From: Candidatus Pacearchaeota archaeon
GTDB taxonomy: Archaea; Nanobdellota; Nanobdellia; Pacearchaeales; GW2011-AR1
Reading direction: 5' to 3'
Assembly (NCBI GenBank): GCA_016866955.1
Contig: VGKT01000002.1
Coordinates: forward strand, 16,072 to 80,071
DNA length: 64,000 nucleotides
Below the pieces are notes generated by a model that made no database searches, was not told the origin of the DNA, and saw nothing but the letters and a program-made list of their open reading frames with translations. This document shows, one piece after another, positions 7,776-30,767 of the stretch. Numbering within the stretch: the first letter of the stretch is position 1; the number at the start of each line of letters is the position of its first letter. The position numbers were made by a program, and so were the translations under genes.

Positions 7776-8066
7776 CTATTCGCATAAAACAATGTTCTCT
7801 GCACGAGGATCATTCCAAATTTCAGAGAATTGGGTAAGATTCGAAACAGGTACCAAAGAAACAACTTTTCCTTGTTCACAATGCACCAGCACATCAATAC
7901 ACTGGTGCTGGTCATTACAAATAGCAGTTGTCCAGGTATATGTTTTTTCAGACTCAATAGTACCAACTACTTGACCCGTCACACTTCCCTGACCTAAAAA
8001 ATACCCTCCACCAAAGGCCCCCACTATAAGTAAAAGTGCTCCCCAGATAAATAATTTCATCATCAT
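7776..8066 (-). CDS. small secreted/membrane-anchored hypothetical protein
   Basis: N-terminal TM/signal (MMMKLFIWGALLLIVGAF) and 4 Cys. Overlaps the gatE stop by 4 nt. Confidence 0.4.
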   Translation of the reverse strand: MMMKLFIWGALLLIVGAFGGGYFLGQGSVTGQVVGTIESEKTYTWTTAICNDQHQCIDVLVHCEQGKVVSLVPVSNLTQFSEIWNDPRAENIVLCE

Positions 8067-9493
8067 CCAACCACCTTCTGCAAAATATCCATTGTTTTTT
8101 TCTTATCAATACCAGTACCAAGTTTTCCAATCACCAATCCCATATAGGCATTCGCTCGTAATCCCGGTTTTTCAGCAACAAGAGCACGGATAGTTTGTTC
8201 AAGTGCATTCTCATCAAGTCCAGGAGCAGGTAAAGAAGATGAAACACTCTTTCCCTCAACAACACTCTTCAATACTCCTTTAACGTGCCCTTCTGCAAGG
8301 CGTCCTGAAGCAACATATTCCAAAATCTCATCATAAATCGCTTCAGTCAACACTGAAGCACGTTCATCAGCAGTCATATGTGCTTTTGTTCCCACTTCTT
8401 GTGTCCACAACGTAATTAATTTAGCAGTTAATACAGGAGATACCGCATGTCGTTTTACAAGTGTAGTATACAATGGCACATACCCATCCAACACCAGAGT
8501 AACAAGATCCGAAGAGAGCCCTTGTTTCAAAAGATCTTGTCGAATATCGTGTTGTAAACGAGGAAGGGATTTCTTAAGTCCATCAAGTCGTTCTTTAGAA
8601 ATATACAACAAAGGGAGATCAGTTTCAGGATACATGCGTGCTTTCCCGGGCATTGGACGAAGAAACTTTGTTGTCCCATCAGGTAACGCCTGACGAACTT
8701 GACTAGCCCCTTGTTTCTCACTTTGCTGTCGAGCAATTTCAGTCAGAATCGTCTGTTCCATCATCGCCACATCTTGAAATCCTTTTACTTCGACACGAGG
8801 ATGTCCCGGACTACTGATGTTCACATCCTGACGAATCGTTCCAATTCCTCGTTTCACCTTACATGCACGAAGAATCTCCCCCAATTTCAATGCAGTTTCC
8901 TTTACCTGTACAGGAGTTGTCAAAGTAGGAGCAGTAGCAATTTCAACCAAAGGAATTCCTAAACGATCAAGACGATACACTACTTCTTTTCCTGATTTTT
9001 CTGAAACTAAGCGCGCAGAATCCTCTTCCAAACATACTGTGTCAATAGGTACCTTTCCAAACGAAGTTTCAATATAACCATTACGCGCCAATACAACCGT
9101 ACGCTGAAAACCAGAAGTATTCGAACCATCAATCACCAACTTTCGCATAATCTGTGTATGCTGATACACTTCACAATTGAGCAATAACGCCACACGTAAC
9201 GCCTCATCCAAAGCAGCAGGAGAAATAAGATGCGGAGGTTCTTCATCTAATTCAACTAAACAAGTCGAATCATGATATCCCTCGTACACAAACGTCTTCT
9301 CTTTCCCCGCTTCATGCTGCACAGCAACATCAACCTCCCCCGTCTCTCCAGCAATAGCATGCAACTTTCGTGTCACCCGCACGTCACCAGCATCTTGCCG
9401 TAAATAGCCCGGACACGCACAAAACAGTTTCCCTGTGTCTAATTGCTGATGTATCTCAAGTCCTGCCTTAAAACCGAGTGTTGGGGAGCGCAT
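8063..9493 (-). CDS. gatE: Glu-tRNA(Gln) amidotransferase subunit E (GatE-like, short form)
   Basis: GatB/GatE-family N-terminus (GLEIHQQLDTGKLFCACPGY...) with the GatE-characteristic YEGYHDSTCLVELDEEPP segment. At 476 aa it is shorter than typical GatE. Confidence 0.75.
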   Translation of the reverse strand: MRSPTLGFKAGLEIHQQLDTGKLFCACPGYLRQDAGDVRVTRKLHAIAGETGEVDVAVQHEAGKEKTFVYEGYHDSTCLVELDEEPPHLISPAALDEALRVALLLNCEVYQHTQIMRKLVIDGSNTSGFQRTVVLARNGYIETSFGKVPIDTVCLEEDSARLVSEKSGKEVVYRLDRLGIPLVEIATAPTLTTPVQVKETALKLGEILRACKVKRGIGTIRQDVNISSPGHPRVEVKGFQDVAMMEQTILTEIARQQSEKQGASQVRQALPDGTTKFLRPMPGKARMYPETDLPLLYISKERLDGLKKSLPRLQHDIRQDLLKQGLSSDLVTLVLDGYVPLYTTLVKRHAVSPVLTAKLITLWTQEVGTKAHMTADERASVLTEAIYDEILEYVASGRLAEGHVKGVLKSVVEGKSVSSSLPAPGLDENALEQTIRALVAEKPGLRANAYMGLVIGKLGTGIDKKKTMDILQKVVG

Positions 9494-9510: not shown

Positions 9511-9528
9511 GAGATTATAAAAAACTAC
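9511..9528 (-). promoter_or_regulatory. conserved gat promoter element (BRE/TATA) upstream of gatE
   Basis: GAGATTATAAAAAACTAC. The TATA box ends 23 nt before the ATG. Near-identical copies lie upstream of gatD and gatB. Confidence 0.6.
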
Positions 9529-9553: not shown

Positions 9554-10531
9554 TTAGCCTTTAGGAGTAACAGTATACTTGAATCCGTAACGTTTAGTAT
9601 AGCGATTTAATTGCGCTTTGATCTCTTCACTCCCGATGTTACCTCGTAAAGAGTAGCGAGCAAAGCGACTATTTGCAGAATCTAAATGAACATGTGTTTC
9701 ATGATCTTTGTATCCATTTGTCATACTTTGAAATCCACTCAAAATACCTTTCATAGTATATGAAAGACCTTTCCCTCGTAAACCAGAAAGCTCAATTTCA
9801 AAAACACGATTAGAACGAAGCATTGTCTCAAGATGCTCTGCAGAGTTCAGGACTTGAGAAGCAATAAATTCATGAAAAAGATTTTCAGTAAATGACGGTT
9901 TCTCTAGTTGACTCTCCCGTGATGCTCGATCTTTAAGAGTTTTATTAAGTAATCCAAGATACAGTTCTCGATGACCTTGAGTAATAATTGCAGGAGTATA
10001 TCCTCGTTGTTCTAAAGCGAAATTTTGTACAAGACGAGCAGTTCTTCCATTTCCATCTCCATACGGGTGAATACGAATCAGTTCAATATGTGCTTGAGAA
10101 GCTCGAATAACAGGATGAATGTCCGTACGTTCATTTAAAAAATAACAAAGATTATCAATAGCAGAGAGAATACGTTCAGGAGGAATACCTGATAAATCTC
10201 CAAAAGTAACTTCCCCGCTTCTAAAATAACGAGCAATATTAGGACGAGGCTCAACGATACTTCCTAAAACAGCAAAAGTAGTTTTATCAAACCCATGTTC
10301 TGCAAGATATGCACGTGCTGAACTTAAATTTTTAATGTACTCTGAGCGTTTTTGCGCAACTTGCTTATTAGTAGGGCTATCCTCATTTTCAATTTCTAAA
10401 TTAGAAGAATGTTTATCAGAATCACGAATGAGGCCTGTAAATACTTCTCGAGCAAGACTACGAGAATATTCAGGATGCGTATTAATTCTCCCTATAGCTT
10501 CATCGATTTTTTTCAGAGTTTTATAAATCAT
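9554..10531 (-). CDS. Fic/DOC family protein (putative AMPylase)
   Basis: Canonical Fic motif HPYGDGNGRTARL. Has its own TATA-like element (GGTTTAAATAGGG) upstream. Confidence 0.85.
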   Translation of the reverse strand: MIYKTLKKIDEAIGRINTHPEYSRSLAREVFTGLIRDSDKHSSNLEIENEDSPTNKQVAQKRSEYIKNLSSARAYLAEHGFDKTTFAVLGSIVEPRPNIARYFRSGEVTFGDLSGIPPERILSAIDNLCYFLNERTDIHPVIRASQAHIELIRIHPYGDGNGRTARLVQNFALEQRGYTPAIITQGHRELYLGLLNKTLKDRASRESQLEKPSFTENLFHEFIASQVLNSAEHLETMLRSNRVFEIELSGLRGKGLSYTMKGILSGFQSMTNGYKDHETHVHLDSANSRFARYSLRGNIGSEEIKAQLNRYTKRYGFKYTVTPKG

Positions 10532-10594
10532 AAAGATTTGACCTAAAAACCCTATTTAAACCTTCCTATTTGTAACCTTTTAATAGTAACAACA

Positions 10595-11857
10595 CTAGCA
10601 AACCAATCGTTCACTGAACTCCCCCGCAACGTTTTCAAGCATTTTCTTTTCCAAATCTTTCTTCCATCCATAATGCCCGAGTATCCAACCCAACTTAACT
10701 AACGCCGTTTCAGCCAAGAGGTCTCCTAAAAATACCACCCCTGCATCAATAAGCTCTCGCCCGTTACTATACACGTACGGATCAACGCGCCCATTGATGG
10801 TTTGCGTCACACACCCGACAAAAAATCCTGCACGAATATGTTTTTTCAAGAGAGGAATCCAACTATTCCCTGATTCACTTACAGGTAAATGACCGAATCC
10901 GCTTGCTTCTACAATAATCCCTTTATATTTCAAAGCATAATAATCAAGAATATCAGGAGATTGCCCAGGATAAAATTTCACTAACGCAATCTTATCACTA
11001 CACACTGCATCAACCACACAAGGTTTGGTATGTCGAGGAGTAAATGAGCCAGTATACGTAACTCTATCGGGCCAGACCTTCGCAACAGGAACAGTATTCA
11101 CTGGTTGAAACGCATCTCTGCGAGAAGAATGTAATTTTCGCACTTTTGTCCCGAGCAATGCTTGACAATAGTCATCAGATTCGGTTGCGTGCCCCACCAC
11201 AAACACTCCAGCCGCTTTATCAATCACCATCCGAGCAGCACACTGGAGATTCAGATGTGCATCACTACTCGGGCGATCAATACTCCGCTGTGAATACGTT
11301 AACACCACTGGCTTCCCCAGATCTCGAAGCATAAATGAGAGAGCTGCAGCCGTATAATGCAAAAAGTCAGTACCATGTGTCACCACCACTCCCTGAATTG
11401 CAGGATCATTCACCAGGTTTCCTACTTCCTGCGCAATTAATTTCCAATGCTCGCTATCCATACTTTCACTCGCAATCTTAAACGGAATACGAATCACTTT
11501 CACCTCAACCATTTGAAATAATGCTGGATAATACTGTACGAAATCTTCGACAGAAGCCAAGGGTTTCACTCCCCCTGTCTTTGGATCCAGCACAGAAGCA
11601 ATCGTTCCCCCGGTAATCACCATCCCAATAACCGGTTTCCCAGAAGAGCGGCGAACAACAGAAGGAAGTTGAGAAACAGGAGCAGAACCAAGTACTTCTC
11701 CTCCTAAAATGTGATCAGCAGAAATACCAATATTATAGCCGCTTCCCAATTTCAATAAACAAATGCCCGGCTCATGACTTTCCAATACAGTACCTTCCAC
11801 TTCCTCTTGTGCAAGACGTAAGCGTACGCGATCTCCTGGTTTTCCTATAAAAGCCAT
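10595..11857 (-). CDS. gatD: Glu-tRNA(Gln) amidotransferase subunit D
   Basis: Asparaginase-like motifs (VITGGTIAS, VVTHGTDFL) following an N-terminal GatD-type domain. Confidence 0.9.
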   Translation of the reverse strand: MAFIGKPGDRVRLRLAQEEVEGTVLESHEPGICLLKLGSGYNIGISADHILGGEVLGSAPVSQLPSVVRRSSGKPVIGMVITGGTIASVLDPKTGGVKPLASVEDFVQYYPALFQMVEVKVIRIPFKIASESMDSEHWKLIAQEVGNLVNDPAIQGVVVTHGTDFLHYTAAALSFMLRDLGKPVVLTYSQRSIDRPSSDAHLNLQCAARMVIDKAAGVFVVGHATESDDYCQALLGTKVRKLHSSRRDAFQPVNTVPVAKVWPDRVTYTGSFTPRHTKPCVVDAVCSDKIALVKFYPGQSPDILDYYALKYKGIIVEASGFGHLPVSESGNSWIPLLKKHIRAGFFVGCVTQTINGRVDPYVYSNGRELIDAGVVFLGDLLAETALVKLGWILGHYGWKKDLEKKMLENVAGEFSERLVC

Positions 11858-11873
11858 ATCTTCCTACTATTGA

Positions 11874-11892
11874 GAAGGTTATAAAAAACTAC
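11874..11892 (-). promoter_or_regulatory. conserved gat promoter element upstream of gatD
   Basis: GAAGGTTATAAAAAACTAC. The TATA box ends 21 nt before the ATG. Confidence 0.6.
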
Positions 11893-13891: not shown

Positions 13892-14046
13892 CGGCCCCAG
13901 GAAGAATCGAACTCCCGTTCTCAGGTTGCTTCGTATCGCACCACCGGGGTGATACGTCCTCCAAAAGGAGGATGATGCGTCAAGGAACCGTGGTTCCTTA
14001 CGCTACGCTCCGAAGCCTGATGTTCTATCCACTAAACTATGGGGCC
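13892..14046 (-). tRNA. tRNA-Arg (anticodon TCG) with a roughly 82-nt intron in the anticodon loop
   Basis: Hand-folded. Acceptor GGCCCCA/TGGGGCC, D-arm GTTT-AGTGGATA-GAAC, anticodon stem TCAGG/CCTGA, loop CTTCGG^intron^A, T-arm GGGAG-TTCGATT-CTTCC. Intron placed at the canonical 37/38 position. Confidence 0.55.
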
Positions 14047-14072: not shown

Positions 14073-15443
14073 TTAAACTTTGGACAAAGCTTGAAGAAGA
14101 AGCTTTCGAGCAAGAGTATAGTCTGCTCGCTTAGCACTCGCCTTCATAACCGCACCCATCAAAAAGTCAAGTGCTTTCACTTCTCCGGCTTTATAATCGC
14201 TTACTGCTTTCGGATGTGCATGCAATACAGAAGTGATAAAGCTCAAGAGCTGTTTTTCATCACGAATAGTGCTTTCAGCAACAGAAGGCATGCTACTCTG
14301 AGGATACCATGAGTTCAGAATTTCTTTCGCTTTCAAAGGAGTAAGTTTTCCACGTTGCACAAACTGTAAAAGTGCACTAAAATGAGCAGGTTGTATGTTC
14401 ACCTTTTCTAAAGAAACCTTATGATAGTTAAGAAAACGCAATAATTCAACCGTCACCCACGGAGCAGCGAACGCTCCATCAACTTCTTGTGCAACCTGCT
14501 CAAAAAAAGTAACCAAATCAATATCTGAAGCCAAGAGCTGTGCATCGCTCGAAGAAAGTTTATATTGCTTGACAAGTTTTGCACGTGTAGCATCAGGAGA
14601 TGCAGGTAATGCCGTACGAATATCGTGCACAAAAGATGAAACAAGTTCTAACACAGGTATATCAGGATCTGCAATAAATCGATAATCTGCAGCAGTTTCT
14701 TTCGAACGCATTACACTCGTTTTTCCTTTTACTGCATCCCATCGTCGAGTTTCTTCAACGTTCCCCCCTTCACGAGCTTGTCGTTCAAATTCAAACGCAA
14801 TAGCTTTTCCAATTTCATCAATACTATTAACATTCTTAATTTCAACACGTTTGCTAACACCAGGAATATTGATATTAACATCAACTTTGATACCAGCATT
14901 TGCATCAATTGCTTTCAAATAAGTAAGATGATGCACCAATTTTCCTAACCAGGCTTGCACTTCTTCTCCCGTTGAAAAATCAGGAGCAGTTACAATTTCA
15001 ACCAAGGGCAATCCTGAACGATTGTAATCTACGTTCCCGGTAGTCGGTTCCCAACTCGCAGGATCTTCTTCAAGATGCATCTCACTAATCTCAATCCCTT
15101 GAAAGGTGCCCTTAACACCCAAAGGAGTCGCGCCAGTCCCACTTAACGTCATCTGATATCCTTTTGGTAAATCAGGCCAGGCATAATGTTTTCGTATCCA
15201 AGGCATACGTGCATTCACCGTACATCCCAAGACCAAAGCAATTTGTACCGCTTTACGCACTGCTTCAAGATTCGGAGCACGAGGTTTTGCTCCTGGCTGT
15301 CCCGTACAGGTTGGACAAATCAACGTATTCGGAGCAAGCCCACGTTCACGTGAAGCAATACACGTACAAAACAATTTCTCACGTGTATTCAAATAACAAT
15401 GAATTTCAAGGCCAATCATTCCTTGAACCAGTTTCTGTTTCAT
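14073..15443 (-). CDS. gatB: aspartyl/glutamyl-tRNA amidotransferase subunit B
   Basis: GLEIHCYLNT..KLFC.C, ICPTCTGQPGAKP, RKHYAWPDLPKGYQ and a C-terminal GatB/YqeY domain (KAVSDYKAGEVKALDFLMGAVMK). Confidence 0.85.
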   Translation of the reverse strand: MKQKLVQGMIGLEIHCYLNTREKLFCTCIASRERGLAPNTLICPTCTGQPGAKPRAPNLEAVRKAVQIALVLGCTVNARMPWIRKHYAWPDLPKGYQMTLSGTGATPLGVKGTFQGIEISEMHLEEDPASWEPTTGNVDYNRSGLPLVEIVTAPDFSTGEEVQAWLGKLVHHLTYLKAIDANAGIKVDVNINIPGVSKRVEIKNVNSIDEIGKAIAFEFERQAREGGNVEETRRWDAVKGKTSVMRSKETAADYRFIADPDIPVLELVSSFVHDIRTALPASPDATRAKLVKQYKLSSSDAQLLASDIDLVTFFEQVAQEVDGAFAAPWVTVELLRFLNYHKVSLEKVNIQPAHFSALLQFVQRGKLTPLKAKEILNSWYPQSSMPSVAESTIRDEKQLLSFITSVLHAHPKAVSDYKAGEVKALDFLMGAVMKASAKRADYTLARKLLLQALSKV

Positions 15444-15460: not shown

Positions 15461-15478
15461 GAGGTTATAAAAAACTAT
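15461..15478 (-). promoter_or_regulatory. conserved gat promoter element upstream of gatB
   Basis: GAGGTTATAAAAAACTAT. The TATA box ends 21 nt before the ATG. Confidence 0.6.
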
Positions 15479-23171: not shown

Positions 23172-26100
23172 TCAGCTTTGTAAAAATCGAGGAAGATAAA
23201 CACACTTGAACCAATTCAAGATACGTGAAATATCGGTCAAACGATCATCAAAACATCCTCGCGTTACAAACAGAGATCCTCGAGATTTATCACGACTTGT
23301 TTTAGAGTTCTTTCCAAGAATAACTCCTGCTTCTTCCAATTCTTCATCAGTACCTGGCACATCATCACGTACAGCAGAAGCAGTTCCTGAAGTTCTTCCA
23401 ATCAATGCTTGCACAGCAGCTTGATTCTTTTGTTTCTTCAAACTATCAAGGCTATCTGATTGAGAAGCATCAAGTCGTACATTTTCAGGATTAGATGGAA
23501 TAATTTTTTTACCAACAACACAAACAAGTTTTTTACTATCAAATTCCCCCTTACGCTTAGTACACATTTCCTCAGCAAGACTCTTACAATCAGCAGGACA
23601 CAACGCACGAGTTTCTCCTGCTTTAGTATCACAGATCTTATCTCCACATGCACTAGGAAGCGTAGTATTAGTAACAATTCCAATAGTACATCCCAAAGGA
23701 TTAGTACAAGTAATCGGAGGTACAAGGATATCTCCCGAACAAGGACAACTACCTGCACAAGCAACAGAAGTAGTCGCTTGACCTGCAAAACAAGGATTCA
23801 TATAAGAAAGTCCGTTTGCCCCACACACAGGAGACGCAGGTTGGCTTGCACAAGAAGGAACACAAGGGCCATAATAAGCAACAGCTACTTGCGCTTGTGC
23901 AGCTTTACAGGGGCTAGAATACGAAATACCATCCTCTCCACATACTAATGGACCAGCAGATATTGAACCAAATAGTGTAGGGCAAGTGGTTGAAATCGTA
24001 GAACACACTCCTTGATATGCAATCGTTATTCCTACTTGAGTAGCTAAACAAGCTTTATCATACGTTACTTCATTTGTACCACACACAGGAGCAGAAGGTT
24101 CGCTTGCGCACGCATATTCAGATCCCCCAGTACATTCATAGAATTCAAGAGACTGCATAACAACCAAAGTATTCTGAGGATTACCTGGCGTTTGTACTTC
24201 CAACTTCGTAAACGTAATACGATAATAGCGTGCAGAAACAGGGGAAGCAAGCATCCGTTTATTCACAGTGCGTGCATCACTCAAAGAAGCACTATCTCGT
24301 ATCGCCCAAGTAACACCGTCATCAGAAGACTCCAGAACAAACTGAGCAACTAATGGATTCCCTCCAAGAAGTTTAAATTGATACGCACCAATAGTACGAG
24401 GAGCAATAAATGAATACTGAATCCATTTTGGTGCACTAGCTGAAACAACCTGCGATTGCCAGAAGTTTGTCCCACCTGAGAAAGCACCCCAGGCCTGTCC
24501 TTGCGGACCACCAACCGTTGGATAATTCAATGCTTCACTATTACTTGATACGGTACCAACTGAAGAAGTATAACTTGACATCGTAGGAACAATAGTACCA
24601 CTCAACGATGTACACCCTGCCTGATTTGTATTCCCCGCACCATCGCTCACACACGTACAGCTACCTTCAAAGCAAGTATGAGTAAATCCAGGCAAACAAA
24701 GTATACCCACTGGAGGAGTCGTACATGCACCAGTAGAAACAATACTCACTCCAAGTGTTTCTGCTTCACATGAATTACCATACGTTACTCCATCATCCCC
24801 ACATACTGGTTTATACACTGCAGAACAAGTAACTGGTTCAGGAATTTTAACACAATGCAACTTTCCACAACCACTCAAACAGCCATTCGCGTCATAAGAA
24901 TTATCTTCAAGTGTACACTTTCCCCCAATTGGAATAAACACTTGAGGACAGGTAACTACATCGGCACAAAGGACAACATCATCTGATACTATATTTCCAC
25001 AAGTAATTGGACATCCCTTTTCATTGAGAACAGGGGCACCATAATGATATCCTTTAGGAGCACGAGGACAAGTCAAAGGCCCACATGCATCTCTGCCATT
25101 ACCTTCACAAGATAACGTACCGCAATCAATTTGACAACCAAAGTGATCAATACCTGGATTGGAATAAGAACAATCCGCAGGGGCAATACAAATCGGAGCA
25201 ACAGGACATACAAACGACTCTTCTCTGAATGCTGCACATTCTCCATCAGAACACGAAGTACAAGGTACAAAATCTCCTCCACGTTCAGGTGAAACACCAG
25301 GAGCAACACAATATAACTTGCTCACATAACACTTCTCTCCTTCACATGAATCAACCTTTTGCCCAAATTCACCAAAGGGATGTTCACTAATATAACATTC
25401 TTCATATAAGTTTTCAGAAACAAAAGATCCTTTACTATCGGTAAAACGTAACGCATGACGAGAATCTCTTCCAAAAGGATAATAGGCAAATTGTTTTGCA
25501 CGTTCACGTCCCTGACAAATACCAATAAAATTACGACTATATTTGCACTCCCAATAGAAAGCAACTCCCCCTCCTAAAGTATCAGCCCAACAAGCATTTC
25601 TATAATCTTTGCCATCTGCACCACACACAGGAGTATAATCGCTCGTACAATGATTTCCACCATCTCCTCCACCTTCTCCTCCACCTTTTCCTCCACCTTC
25701 TCCTCCACCTTTTCCTCCACCAACAATAGTAATGATAGGAGTACACAAAACAGAATCAATAGGTGCATGCGTTAAAGAATCAACACACACTCTTCCAACC
25801 CAAATAGGATCTCCACGAACAGTTTTTTCTCCACATAAATCAACATACCAATTATCAGGTTCGCTCGTCACATCATTACATCCGGCAGGACCGGGAAGAA
25901 TATACGAAAATGATGCTTGAGAGGTTCCCAAAGGATATACGCCTGAATAAAGTACCATCTCTCCGCTCATACCGTAAGCTCCAAAGAAGCTAGGCAACGG
26001 TCCAACTTTGCCATCTGTTCCTCCACCCGTCCCCTTATGAACAAGTCCTCCACGAGAATCAACCAAGTACCATGCTCCATCACCCACGTCTAATTGAAAA

Positions 26101-29100
26101 TAAACCGCAGCTAGATCTTTCTTAGTATCACAAGAGAGTCCAGTCTTTTGAATGCCCCATACTGCAGCAGGAGGTTGCACCTTACAGTCTTGTGGACAAC
26201 TACCCACCGATACCGTTTGAGTACATACCTCTGGCACTTTAGGGACATTGGGAGTAGTCGTAGGAGTAGTTGGTGGAGCAATCACCGTACAACGTTCAGC
26301 ATAAAGTGCCTTATATTCAACACTTTTTAAGAAGCCCTCTACAACTTGTGCACGAGTAGAAATTCCCTGTGTAAGTAAACCAGTCCAGTATGCTTTTCCT
26401 TGAGGATCTGAAGATCGTAAGAACAAACGTTCATACAATGTTTCAACAAACGCATCAGTACTCAACGTAACCAACCCATTAGCAAACGTTGTTGCATCAG
26501 GAGTACTACAACTAAAGGTACCTGAAGTAGAAGTTGCCTTGATAACTGGTAAGGCAAGACAGAAATGCACGTAGTGTGTTCCTCCCGAAAAGTAAGAAGG
26601 AGAATAGGGCACAACGCTACCCGAAGGATACATCGTACCCACCAAAGGAGCAACACTTGCTGCAGTTGTTTGACTCAATTTCCATTGTCCTCCAACATTT
26701 TCATACGTAAAGACAAGATTTCCACCCAAATGAGTCACAAATGAAGTCGTACTCATACCATCTCCACTCGAAGGTTGATAAACCGGACCACCATTCGAAC
26801 ACACACTCGAACCAATCGGAACAAAATCAACTACAATTTTACTTCCAGAACCAGTTCCACTCACTGGAATAGTAATAACCTGTGAAGAGCCATCTGCAAA
26901 ATAAAGTGTCAAAGTTCCTCCACTCCAAGGTTGCACTTTTGCAGCAAATACATCTAATTGATAAGTTCCAGCAGGATAGATTCCCAAAGACTGACCATAT
27001 TCATAATTCAATTGCTGACCATTTCCAATAAATACAAGAGGGTATGCATTGGTAGAAGAAGTCGACCAATATTCTCCTTGAAATGCATGTTGTAGATAGG
27101 CTGAAGTAATAGTCTTTGCAACAGGAAGAGACAATTGCACTATGAAATGATGATCAACTCCCCCGTACGCTGAAAAGGTTCCCCACGGACCAACGCGATC
27201 TTGATCAGCACCAAGATAAGTAGCAGTAATTTTTTGCTCTTGTTGTGTAGAAACAGGAACAACACCGCCAGGAAGACGAACACAGAACGTTGTTTGCTCA
27301 CCTGATTGAGCAGTATACCTTCCTCGTACAATTTGTCCTGAAGCATATTTAATCGAATTAAATGAGCCATGAGGAGGCAATGAAATAGACTGACCATCTA
27401 ACGTTAATGAACCATACGCTGGTCCTCCTTGCGAACCGATCTGCCAAACAGAAGGAGCAGTAAGAGAGAAACCAAGAGGAATCGTACCAATAGAAGATTT
27501 ACTCACAAATCCTGAAACAGGAACTTGCCAAGATGAACGAGAATATCCTTGGAAAGTACCTGCTTGATATCCTGCACTTGTTTCATCATACAAAACAGGG
27601 CAACCTGCAATACCCGTACCTTGTGTCGTAGGCGTTTGAGTAAGTGGAGTAACAAAAGAGGTAGAACTTCCTGGCAATTGCAAACACGTTAGTCCCGCAA
27701 TTCCATTGATACGTACCTGTGTTCCTGGAGGATACGAGCCGCGCCCATCAGGGAAGGATACAACTCCTCCTGGATAACCACCGACGAAATAGGTCCCATC
27801 TCCTTGAATATTGAAAAAGGAATAATAAGCTCCTGTTTGATAGACTACCGTCGTAGCATCATAACCTGCAGGGCGAGGATTCAAAGGTTGCGCACAACTT
27901 GTGGTTGTGGTTGTTGGAGTTGTAGTTGCAGGAGTAGCAGAAGAAGATGAAGAAGAACTTCCAATATACGTACCAGAACGACATTGAGCAGAAACAGTAA
28001 CAGGAGAACAGATATAAGCCGTTGCACTACCAGTAGAAGTTCGACAGGCACATCCTTGATAACCATCAGTTTTTTGCCAAGTAACTAATCGATTACTATC
28101 AGTTGATTCAAAAAATACCCCAATACCTGATAAGGTACATTGTCGTTCATTATTCGCAATCGCATACGTACCTCCACGCTGTGCACACATTGCTTGATTC
28201 TGAATATCAGTCATATCAAAAACATACCAAGGATAATAACAAGTATTTCCTCGCTTTTCACCCTGAAGACCTAGATACGAACAAGCAGAAGAAGCAGCCA
28301 AAGCTTCAAATCGAGGTTCATCGAAATAAGAATGACCAATTGTTTGGAGAGAGGTAGAAGAAACAGTGCACGCATTTCCTGTTGCTTCTCCTGTTTCACA
28401 AATGTTATTTCCACAAACTGCTTTATCTAATTGAGTAATACACGTATCTTTCTGAGGAATTACAAATGGACCAACAGAAGCTCGCTGAACACCATCACCA
28501 AATAATTTCAAAGTAACTTCTTCTCCAAATTTATAGATGAAATACGAATCAATTGTTTCCTGAGCTTTCATATTTCCTGTTGTTCCTTGTTGAATTAATT
28601 GATCCCATCCTCCACGAGAGTTGTAAAGCATGTATGAAGAAGCAAGAACCTTATTAACGCCAAAACTAAAGTCTTGACGTACCCCACTCCCATCAGGTAA
28701 ACATTCTTGTTTTCCTAATTGAATTGTCCATTCATCAATTTTCGGAGAAAGTAATGGAACAAATCCTGGGGCACTAGTTAATTGAGTAACAATTGGAGAA
28801 GAGAAACTGAGAGGAATAAGATCCGATGAAGGAGTAACGGTTTCACAAGGTTTCGCAACAATCTTCCCATTCGGACATTGATACGTTTCTCCACCGGTTG
28901 TACACGTATCAAAATTAATATCCAAGTTACAGGTTGGATCCCATCCAAAAGCTCCACACGTATCAGGGTCAGGACCAGTTGTTTCTCCATCAGTTCCTGA
29001 ACAAGGTCCAGACGTACAGGAAGGACTATCACACGGAACTTGTTGAGCAGGAGCTAAACAAGCATACGGCCCAGTACAAAGAGGAATACTATAACAGGTT

Positions 29101-30767
29101 TCAGCAGGGAGAGTAATAATAGCCTGGCTCCCAATAACTTCAGAAGAAATAATCGTAACCGCTACCCCTCCCACGTCTATCGATGGACCTGGTTGCCCGG
29201 AGGGACGATTAGGATCCCCAACAACCTCATCATGAGGAAAAAGTTTTTCAATAGGCTCAATCTTAACTCCCTCAGGAACAGGACCACAAGAAGGATCCCA
29301 TCTTTCAGTAGATTTAATTTTTGGAAGAGGATAATTCTCTGCTCCAGACCACACCCGGCTAGGAGCAGGTGTTTCACAGGCACCATATCGACTGGCAGTC
29401 AATTGTAGATTTGGGTTTTGGCAAGCAGCAACACGAAGAGTACACGAGTTTGAATAGGTTTTACCATCAGAGCCACAAACTGGAGTATAGTCCGCAAGGC
29501 ACCAGGTAGGGCATACAGTTGGGTTAGGAGTAGGAGTAGGAGTAGGAGCAGATTCAGTACTACATTCTTTTGTCACACGCACCCCTTCAGCAGAACAGAA
29601 CGAATCCCCTTCTTGTGCAAGTAATTCTTCACAACTTGGACGAGGACATAACATCTTACAATCTCCTGCTGCCACATCACCTGCAATCGTACATCCTTGC
29701 GCTTCCGCTTGATCAGAAAGTTCTGGACAGGTTCTCTTCGCAATCGTTTCATACACACTTTCAGGAGCAGGTTCCCAATTACTTGTATCCTTAACATAAT
29801 ACACGGGGAGAATTTTAAAATCACCGTCAACAGTACCATCTCCATTCAAATCACCTTCTATTCGTTGCCCATCAGGTACGCTTTCCCCTCCTTTTTCGCT
29901 CTCAACATCCGTACCAGTACAACCCTGACAAGTAACAAGCACTGGTTCACCTGGACCAGTTTTTTTAACCAAACCAATAACAGATAAACCTTCAGGAAGA
30001 GTATGCCCTTCTCCTTCTTCTTGAGGATACTTATATACATCTGCAAAATAATACTTATCATAACCATCTCCACCATCATCTCCACCATCACCATCTCCAC
30101 CATCATCTCCCCCTTCACTTCCGCCATCTCCCCCATCTCCTCCATCTCCCCCATCTCCTCCATCTCCTCCATCTCCCCCATCTCCTCCATCTCCCCCATC
30201 TCCTCCATCTCCCCCATCTCCTCCATCTCCTCCATCTCCTCCATCTCCACCATCATCTCCACCATCTCCTCCATCTCCACCATCATCATCATCATCACCA
30301 TCTCCCCCACTTCCGCCATCACCATCATCACTCAAATATTCAAACGTTACATGTCCCGTCGGAGAAAGTAAATCTGCAAAAGGAGCAAAAAAAGCAGCAA
30401 GGGGAGTTCGAGCAGGTTCAGCAGAAGGAACATCACTAAATCCAAACGCACGCAACACAAATAACGTACCCTGTCGAGTTGCTGCCACATCAGTTGTATA
30501 CAAAGGAACGGTAAAACAATCCCCAAGATTATCAGAGATACATTTCAAAGTACCTGAGCGAGGAACACTATCGGCAATATACAAAAGCGTTTCAGGTTTA
30601 ATCAATCCGTAAGTATATCCTGCAACCCAATATTGAATATCTTGTTCTCCAGCAAACGCACCATCTCGATTTCTATCAAAATTAAATGTTTTTAACGAAG
30701 CACCCGAAACAAAACTAACCAATAAACAAAGTCCAATTAAAAAGAAAACAAAACGCATTAAGCGCAT
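23172..30767 (-). CDS. giant secreted multidomain surface protein (2531 aa)
   Basis: Signal peptide, (GD)n/(GGDG)n low-complexity tract, PTPT linker, six Kazal-like modules (C..YxPVCG(S/A/D)DGxTYxNxC), F5/8 type C discoidin-like domain, DUF4214-like module, dockerin-like [11 protein letters not shown] motif, and GGGK/GGGE repeats. Confidence 0.85.
30060..30300. repeat. short-period coding repeat (ccatctcc[t/c])n encoding the Gly/Asp tract of the giant protein
   Basis: Seen directly in the sequence. Confidence 0.85.

Follow-up and report, generated by a model that had tools for sequence, protein, structure and literature searches.

A predicted self-inhibited Fic-type AMP-transferase of DPANN archaea recurs upstream of gatE behind a conserved sequence element

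Fic enzymes have been studied extensively in bacteria and animals and hardly at all in archaea. In the 2012 scheme of Engel and colleagues, class II Fic proteins reportedly carry an intramolecular N-terminal inhibitory helix. FICD (HYPE), the metazoan Fic enzyme that AMPylates and deAMPylates BiP, has an inhibitory (S/T)xxxE(G/N) motif; the Glu of this motif both pairs with the second Arg in the catalytic loop and enables de-AMPylation (PMC8097203). Self-inhibited Fic proteins such as SoFic act as abortive-infection toxins, and the C-terminal domain of Sofic regulates its activity (PMC12249575). SoFic, from Shewanella, constitutes a single-gene anti-phage system. Nucleotidyl-transferases also act in metabolic control: GlnE and GlnD reversibly nucleotidylylate their targets to control a glutamine-dependent enzyme via ACT/PII-type sensor domains (PMC8097203, Box 1). 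The literature that we searched contained no paper linking Fic proteins with DPANN archaea or with GatDE.

We characterized a fic gene within 64,000 nucleotides of DNA from a Candidatus Pacearchaeota archaeon (the whole stretch is called the window). As the initial annotation stated, fic lies between gatD and gatE. All three genes are on the minus strand. The order on this strand is gatB (14073..15443), a probable intron-containing tRNA, ProRS, a 137-aa ORF, gatD, fic, gatE, a 96-aa ORF and AspRS. The features of the locus are:

8063..9493, minus strand: gatE, short form, 476 aa (TIGR00134, 409.5 bits against a cutoff of 319.6)
9515..9528, minus strand: TATA-type promoter motif GTAGTTTTTTATAA of gatE, ending 21 nt before the ATG
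9554..10531, minus strand: fic, an ORF of 325 aa with its stop codon, encoding a Fic-family AMP-transferase from an archaeal family of DPANN type
9557..9811, minus strand: C-terminal ferredoxin-like domain, codons 241-325 (beta-alpha-beta-beta-alpha-beta, residues 242-323, in AF2 models)
9812..9892, minus strand: linker helix 214-240 (AF2 model)
10034..10069, minus strand: catalytic Fic loop HPYGDGNGRTAR, codons H155-R166 (H155-PYGDGNGRTA-R166)
10187..10213, minus strand: predicted beta-hairpin flap EVTFGDLSG, codons 107-115 (short strands at about 109-114 in the AF2 model)
10391..10411, minus strand: inhibitory-helix motif HSSNLEI, codons H41-I47 (S42xxxE46 at the end of helix 24-46 in the AF2 model)
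10550..10597, minus strand: upstream element of about 48 nt, starting at the gatD stop codon, with two GTWAC boxes followed by a BRE/TATA (GGAAGGTTTAAATAGGG)
10595..11857, minus strand: gatD, 420 aa (NCBIfam GatD equivalog, 8.9e-121)

The fic ORF matched the Pfam Fic family PF02661 (E 1.3e-13, 52.1 bits against a cutoff of 24). The complete Fic motif claimed for the protein is present (HPYGDGNGRTARL), with H155 at 10067..10069 and R166 at 10034..10036. Comparison with HxFx(D/E)GN(G/K)RxxR revealed Tyr instead of Phe as the sole deviation; most family members likewise have Tyr here (69 of 89, with Phe in 17). In the alignment of these 89 proteins, H155 was conserved in 86, G160 and N161 in all, and R163 and R166 in 88 each. 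The window ORF is full length with every catalytic and inhibitory residue intact, and other samples yielded an identical protein. The gene is real and intact, and its assignment to the Fic-type AMP-transferases of the self-inhibited class is well supported.

Gaps of 63 nt and 60 nt separate fic from gatD and gatE, respectively. Neither contains a small ORF and both are too short for an antitoxin gene, so that an adjacent antitoxin, one of the possibilities raised initially, is absent. The class I systems VbhT/VbhA and FicT/FicA, as well as Doc/Phd, have the Fido fold, toxin-like potential and translation-related neighbors in common with the window Fic, but the latter has its inhibitory motif within the same polypeptide, and the gaps leave no space for the adjacent small ORF with an inhibitory helix that characterizes class I toxin-antitoxin pairs. 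Assignment to the Doc kinase type, whose loop reads HxFx(D/N)(A/G)NKR, was also rejected, since the window loop carries the AMPylase-type GNGR rather than GNKR.

The initial annotation had found no obvious inhibitory helix. This was correct for the strict (S/T)xxxE(G/N) motif, which occurs nowhere in the window Fic protein, but a helix does exist, and its S42-S-N-L-E46-I sequence is conserved and aligns with FICD. Across the 89-member alignment, S42 was retained in 88 proteins, E46 in 87 and the pattern HSxx[LIM]E in 87-88; H41, S42 and E46 were invariant in a first, smaller alignment. When the family profile was compared with the PDB, HSxxxE paired with the FICD sequence 'HTVAIEGN', an instance of its N-terminal inhibitory motif (T/S)V(A/G)IE(G/N). 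As in class II proteins, (S/T)xxxE is on a helix N-terminal to the core of the same chain, 109 residues before His155. The G/N that should directly follow the Glu is missing, as the window Fic has Ile47. The residue at this position was Leu in 27 family members, Ile in 11, Phe and Ala in 5 each, and Asn and Gly in 4 each, with others in the remainder, such that G/N accounts for 8 of 89. Because the motif is N-terminal to the core and on the same chain, we predict that this Fic works like a class II, self-inhibited protein; with Ile in place of G/N, the helix could behave differently. A class III assignment, which involves a C-terminal inhibitory helix, was rejected, as there is no (S/T)xxxE(G/N) beyond residue 47.

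An AF2 model of Fic, made from nine homologues, had a pLDDT of 89 and a pTM of 0.86. Residues 1-240 are all helical apart from the short beta-hairpin at about 109-114; by analogy with Fic structures, this flap would position the target residue (PMC8097203). Foldseek comparison of the model identified human FICD as the top match (E 8e-10, TM 0.55-0.57), and FICD was also first when the family profile was searched against the PDB (E 9e-27), with the bacterial class II proteins BtFic (3CUC) and SoFic ranking after it in both searches. FICD is therefore the best match in both sequence and structure, with the same catalytic loop, at an identity of about 21-22% over the aligned fold. Unlike FICD, the window Fic is archaeal, lacks a TM segment and TPR domains, has Tyr for Phe in the loop and Ile (or Leu, in relatives) for G/N after the inhibitory Glu, and ends in a different, ferredoxin-like domain.

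The C-terminal extension described in the initial annotation is real, consisting in the structure prediction of helix 214-240 and a beta-alpha-beta-beta-alpha-beta domain at residues 242-323. No Pfam family matched this domain. Searches of PDB and BFVD with the isolated domain in Foldseek returned generic ferredoxin/ACT/PII-like matches only (best E 4e-3 and 1.6e-3); among the weak fold matches were the NikR C-terminal domain and LANA. We considered whether it might correspond to the AspRS-like insertion domain that is absent from the short GatE and rejected this, as neither a GatE/GAD match in Foldseek nor a Pfam match was found. In the model the domain is packed on the core, where it probably serves regulation, oligomerisation or target choice.

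SoFic likewise is a single-polypeptide, self-inhibited Fic with an accessory, patchy distribution. The PADLOC SoFic model matched the core of the window Fic (E 9.8e-17), covering only model positions 90-218 of 361, and the NCBIfam SoFic equivalog NF046030 scored 33.5 bits against a cutoff of 550; the likeness thus falls short of a full-length SoFic match. The C-terminal domains of the two proteins are unrelated. Moreover, whereas SoFic has a small downstream anti-Sofic gene, the window fic is followed after 60 nt by gatE. The likeness to GlnE/GlnD control is one of function, in that an ACT/PII-like fold occurs in a Fic protein encoded beside a glutamine-dependent amidotransferase. The catalytic folds are unrelated, and the analogy consists of gene neighborhood and a non-significant fold resemblance only.

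When the HMM profile of the C-terminal domain was searched exhaustively against 1.84 billion cluster representatives, 151 were recovered, 96 at E<=1e-10. A word-indexed search gave only nine full-length relatives, and an 89-sequence profile used there also recovered few members. Nearly all family proteins are 305-350 aa long, with the C-terminal domain at the same place, and they have in common an N-terminal 'RINTHPEYS', HSxxxE and the Fic loop. All contexts examined carry archaeal genes, and some members derive from NCBI assemblies. We conclude that these proteins form a coherent, previously undescribed family of DPANN archaea, comprising about 150 clusters at 50% identity. No member was found on viral contigs in a search of IMG/VR, and a viral origin of fic was rejected on this basis. 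In three of the 89 full-length members (P0169, P0181 and one more) the catalytic His is replaced by Gln, and in some members GNS or GNK replaces GNG. Judging from their sequences, these are possibly pseudo-enzymes that keep the architecture.

Comparison of ten independent fic contexts revealed that fic is just upstream of gatE, on the same strand, in eight (the window, L001, L005, L007, L009, L094, L096 and L107), down to 32% Fic identity. Thus, the picture of a private insertion between gatE and gatD, implied by the initial annotation, did not hold. In six of these contexts (the window, L001, L007, L009, L094 and L096) the two genes are immediate neighbors, 34-69 nt apart. A 132-aa ORF separates them in L107, and in L005 (1825..3180) a 49-codon gatE 5′ remnant and a LAGLIDADG ORF lie between fic and the intact gatE. 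The two remaining contexts belong to distant members: in L011 fic is not beside gatE and is followed by an RHH-like ORF, and in L108 it lies between a LAGLIDADG-like ORF, directly upstream, and rpS15. In several loci gatD is upstream of fic, with vapBC-like, epimerase or DUF1003 genes sometimes intervening. Where the gatD-gatE interval contains extra genes (L001 and L007), they sit upstream of fic, leaving it beside gatE; L104 has the same upstream layout, on a contig that ends before any gatE. PIN/VapBC, ParE and AbiEii-like genes occur in and around the slot upstream of gatE, and no classic defense-island genes (RM, CRISPR) adjoin fic.

The closest relatives of the window locus lack fic. L098, L101 and L102 encode GatD, GatE and AspRS that are 78-84%, 77-80% and 78-90% identical to those of the window, in the same surrounding gene order, yet in each a 269/270-aa ORF takes the place just upstream of gatE (L098 2082..2894, L101 3091..3903, L102 5139..5948). 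Of the two observations that would together have marked this as a housekeeping-type Fic, an autoinhibitory helix is present, while ubiquity at the locus is not. Fic and gatE do not move as a unit, since the window GatE shares 78-80% identity with GatEs from loci that lack fic and 52-60% with those linked to it. The slot ORFs of L098 and L101 are 85% identical, and that of L102 is unrelated to both. By eye, a 'VGGxAxQxH ... DxD' motif is present in both types. PDB, NCBIfam and PADLOC gave nothing on the identity of these ORFs; a sub-threshold match of the L102 protein to AbiEii, a nucleotidyl-transferase toxin (E 0.0018), was the sole lead. The approximately 270-aa slot proteins are possibly nucleotidyl-transferase-like.

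Several features of the interval carry signs of exchange. An NAD-dependent epimerase gene (L001 9016..9981, L102 4154..5120) is 89% identical between L001 and L102 at the DNA level over 970 nt and 88% at the protein level, while the flanking gatD and gatE genes are 65-69% identical in DNA. The block of high identity stops just beyond the slot promoter. Because the epimerase so far exceeds its flanks, the comparison indicates that cargo in the gatD-gatE interval has been exchanged horizontally, and recently. The gatE remnant of L005 matches the N-termini of other GatE alleles at 88-91% identity and clearly differs from the N-terminus of the resident intact GatE, and we interpret it as a 5′ piece of a foreign gatE. 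With LAGLIDADG ORFs at L005 and L108, homing endonucleases may help to move the gatE region. The window and L001 fic genes are 67% identical in DNA, matching the 66-67% of their gatD and gatE genes. This fits vertical descent of fic for this pair and its replacement in nearer relatives.

The initial annotation had also described a TATA element belonging to fic. We located it at 10550..10562 on the minus strand (GGTTTAAATAGGG), with the TATA box ending 21 nt before the fic ATG. It is not a sign of foreignness, since gatB, gatD and gatE each have a TATA of their own. Alignment of the sequences upstream of eleven slot genes (eight fic and three non-fic) gave the consensus TTGTTGTAACT-N7-AGTTACAAAT(A/C)GAAAGGTTTAAA(A/T)AGGG, with 18 invariant positions, in which two GTWAC boxes usually form a perfect 8-bp inverted repeat with the BRE/TATA downstream. 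In the window the boxes are at 10586..10590 and 10572..10576; they form an inverted repeat in most relatives. The same element precedes fic and the unrelated 269/270-aa ORFs, and the window copy shares 87.5% identity with the sequence that precedes these ORFs in L102 and L098. The regulatory element of the slot is more strongly conserved than the gene under its control.

The 64-kb window and each related locus contain a single copy of the box pattern, in every case at the slot. An nhmmer model built from 11 loci was searched against the window and 16 loci; the 11 model loci scored E 7e-12 to 1e-6, and a degenerate copy in L005, outside the model, was recovered at 3e-4. Neither search detected a second copy in the window, so no regulon is seen there. 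L011 has a related palindrome with different spacing. The element is probably an operator plus promoter. An RNA hairpin was rejected, because the central W varies without compensation in 3 of 11 sequences and the L007 element is in a divergent intergenic region; the GTWAC palindrome would better fit a protein-binding site.

The amidotransferase genes appear to have a promoter of another kind. GTAGTTTTTTATAA precedes not only gatE but also gatD (11879..11892, no mismatches) and gatB (15465..15478, one mismatch), ending 21 nt before the ATG in each case. No further match with fewer than two mismatches occurs in the 64 kb, and fic lacks the motif. GTAGTTTTTTATAA is not conserved past close relatives and looks like a private promoter common to gatB, gatD and gatE. 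Solved GatE structures contain an AspRS-like (GAD) insertion domain of approximately 120 aa (2D6F residues ~259-377), which the window GatE lacks. A search for GatE gave 7964 matches at E<=1e-60, and nearly all of the best 120 listed were 473-508 aa; GatE forms of about 620 aa carry PF02938. The nearest named homologues are from Nanoarchaeota and Pacearchaeota MAGs, in which, judged from these best 120 of 7964, the short GatE is very common. Since the closest relatives lack fic and the short GatE is so common, GatDE works without fic.

Our data show that fic is not a one-off insertion, and that it is not a core translation factor either. A model to which we give an even chance is that it encodes an accessory AMPylase that is activated conditionally and belongs to an exchangeable cassette under operator control. 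We favor an accessory cassette because fic is dispensable in close relatives, where unrelated ORFs replace it under the same promoter, because toxin-antitoxin-type genes lie nearby amid signs of horizontal exchange, and because SoFic-like toxins provide a precedent. In this model, the layout would be [GTWAC-box operator + TATA] - [variable ORF] - [gatE], with fic as an accessory occupant, and the fixed position of fic on the gatE side would arise mainly from the architecture of the cassette. Fic would be a toxin-like or stress/defense-type AMPylase under a dedicated repressor or activator. At rest, as in FICD and SoFic, Glu46 of the N-terminal helix would form a pair with loop residue Arg166, so that ATP could not bind productively. 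Once a signal had freed this lock, the flap would hold a target protein while His155 activated one of its Ser, Thr or Tyr hydroxyls to receive AMP. De-AMPylation, as the reverse reaction, might also be possible while the Glu is engaged. The most plausible target is GatDE or some other component of translation.

It is doubtful, in our view, that Fic is instead a dedicated regulator that reversibly AMPylates GatE, GatD or a bound factor and so tunes Gln-tRNA(Gln) synthesis, with Glu46 bifunctional as in FICD and the ACT/PII-like C-terminal domain sensing glutamine or a nucleotide. Such a regulator would account for the recurrence of fic upstream of gatE, on the same strand, in divergent lineages, and the similarity of the core to bifunctional FICD and the weak fold matches to ACT and PII-type ligand-binding domains point the same way. 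These fold matches are not significant, however, and the closest relatives function with an unrelated ORF in the slot. The 7964 GatE matches, mostly short among the best 120, contrast with about 150 Fic clusters; fic lacks the promoter motif common to gatB, gatD and gatE; and the distant members in L011 and L108 are not beside gatE. That interval insertions spare the fic-gatE junction has been counted in favor of a tie to gatE, yet it fits a functional tie and the cassette model equally. The toxin-like and GatDE-regulator readings are compatible, as a slot toxin could target GatDE or another translation component. A broader version, in which the DPANN cassette slot by gatE swaps modifying enzymes (Fic or the approximately 270-aa proteins) that act on GatDE/Glu-tRNA(Gln), is distinctly unlikely. 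The conserved two-box element directly upstream of fic might also suggest that Fic is mainly a transcription regulator whose C-terminal domain dimerises on the GTWAC palindrome, controlling its own gene. SoFic-type proteins carry DNA-binding-like C-terminal domains, and NikR and LANA, among the weak matches, are dimeric DNA-binding ferredoxin-like domains. Since these matches are generic and the element also precedes the 269/270-aa ORFs at loci without fic, such that the binder is probably encoded elsewhere, we consider this very unlikely.

Two further explanations concern the status of the gene. Dispensability in close relatives, together with the members that have Gln for the catalytic His or GNS/GNK for GNG, would be expected if fic were a pseudo-enzyme kept for binding or a remnant being lost. 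This is highly improbable for a full-length copy with all catalytic and inhibitory residues intact, whose identical protein recurs in other samples and whose family is under strong purifying conservation. It is scarcely credible that a foreign Doc/Fic toxin gene was inserted recently, and in this lineage only, between gatD and gatE. Its absence from the nearest relatives and a GC content of 0.35-0.37, somewhat below the 0.41-0.47 of gatD and gatE, would be consistent with such an event. Nevertheless, AspRS and ProRS in the window have a GC of 0.36-0.37, so that fic falls inside the window's range and compositional foreignness is ruled out. The same arrangement occurs in many divergent lineages, the divergence of fic from its L001 counterpart equals that of the flanking genes, and the loop is that of a canonical Fic, not Doc.

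The Fic catalytic domain and its control logic were already known. What is new is the archaeal family, its inhibitory motif without G/N, the C-terminal domain, the recurrent position beside gatE and an operator/promoter common to non-homologous genes. In the slot, a promoter/operator of unusual conservation drives genes that are not homologous to one another, and this is a small model of accessory-gene exchange between conserved housekeeping genes in minimal symbiont genomes. The slot also provides a concrete candidate for a connection, open to testing, between AMPylation and the indirect pathway to Gln-tRNA. If modifying enzymes in the slot did act on GatDE/Glu-tRNA(Gln), covalent nucleotidylylation would switch tRNA-dependent glutamine incorporation on and off in response to nitrogen status or infection, a form of control not recognized before. 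Were the target to have nothing to do with GatDE, what would remain is a new Fic subfamily located in a variable region.

Other features of the window were observed in passing. The 96-aa ORF after gatE (7776..8066, minus strand) overlaps the gatE stop by 4 nt, begins with a hydrophobic helix and has no family assignment; it is kept at this place in relatives at 79%, 65%, 50% and 42% identity. Between gatB and ProRS, an Rfam tRNA match of 155 nt (13892..14046, minus strand, 49 bits), not called by ARAGORN, is probably an archaeal tRNA with an intron. By eye, its anticodon loop reads CUUCGGA, which would give UCG (Arg). The ORF scan also revealed a very large ORF of 2531 aa at 23172..30767 on the minus strand.
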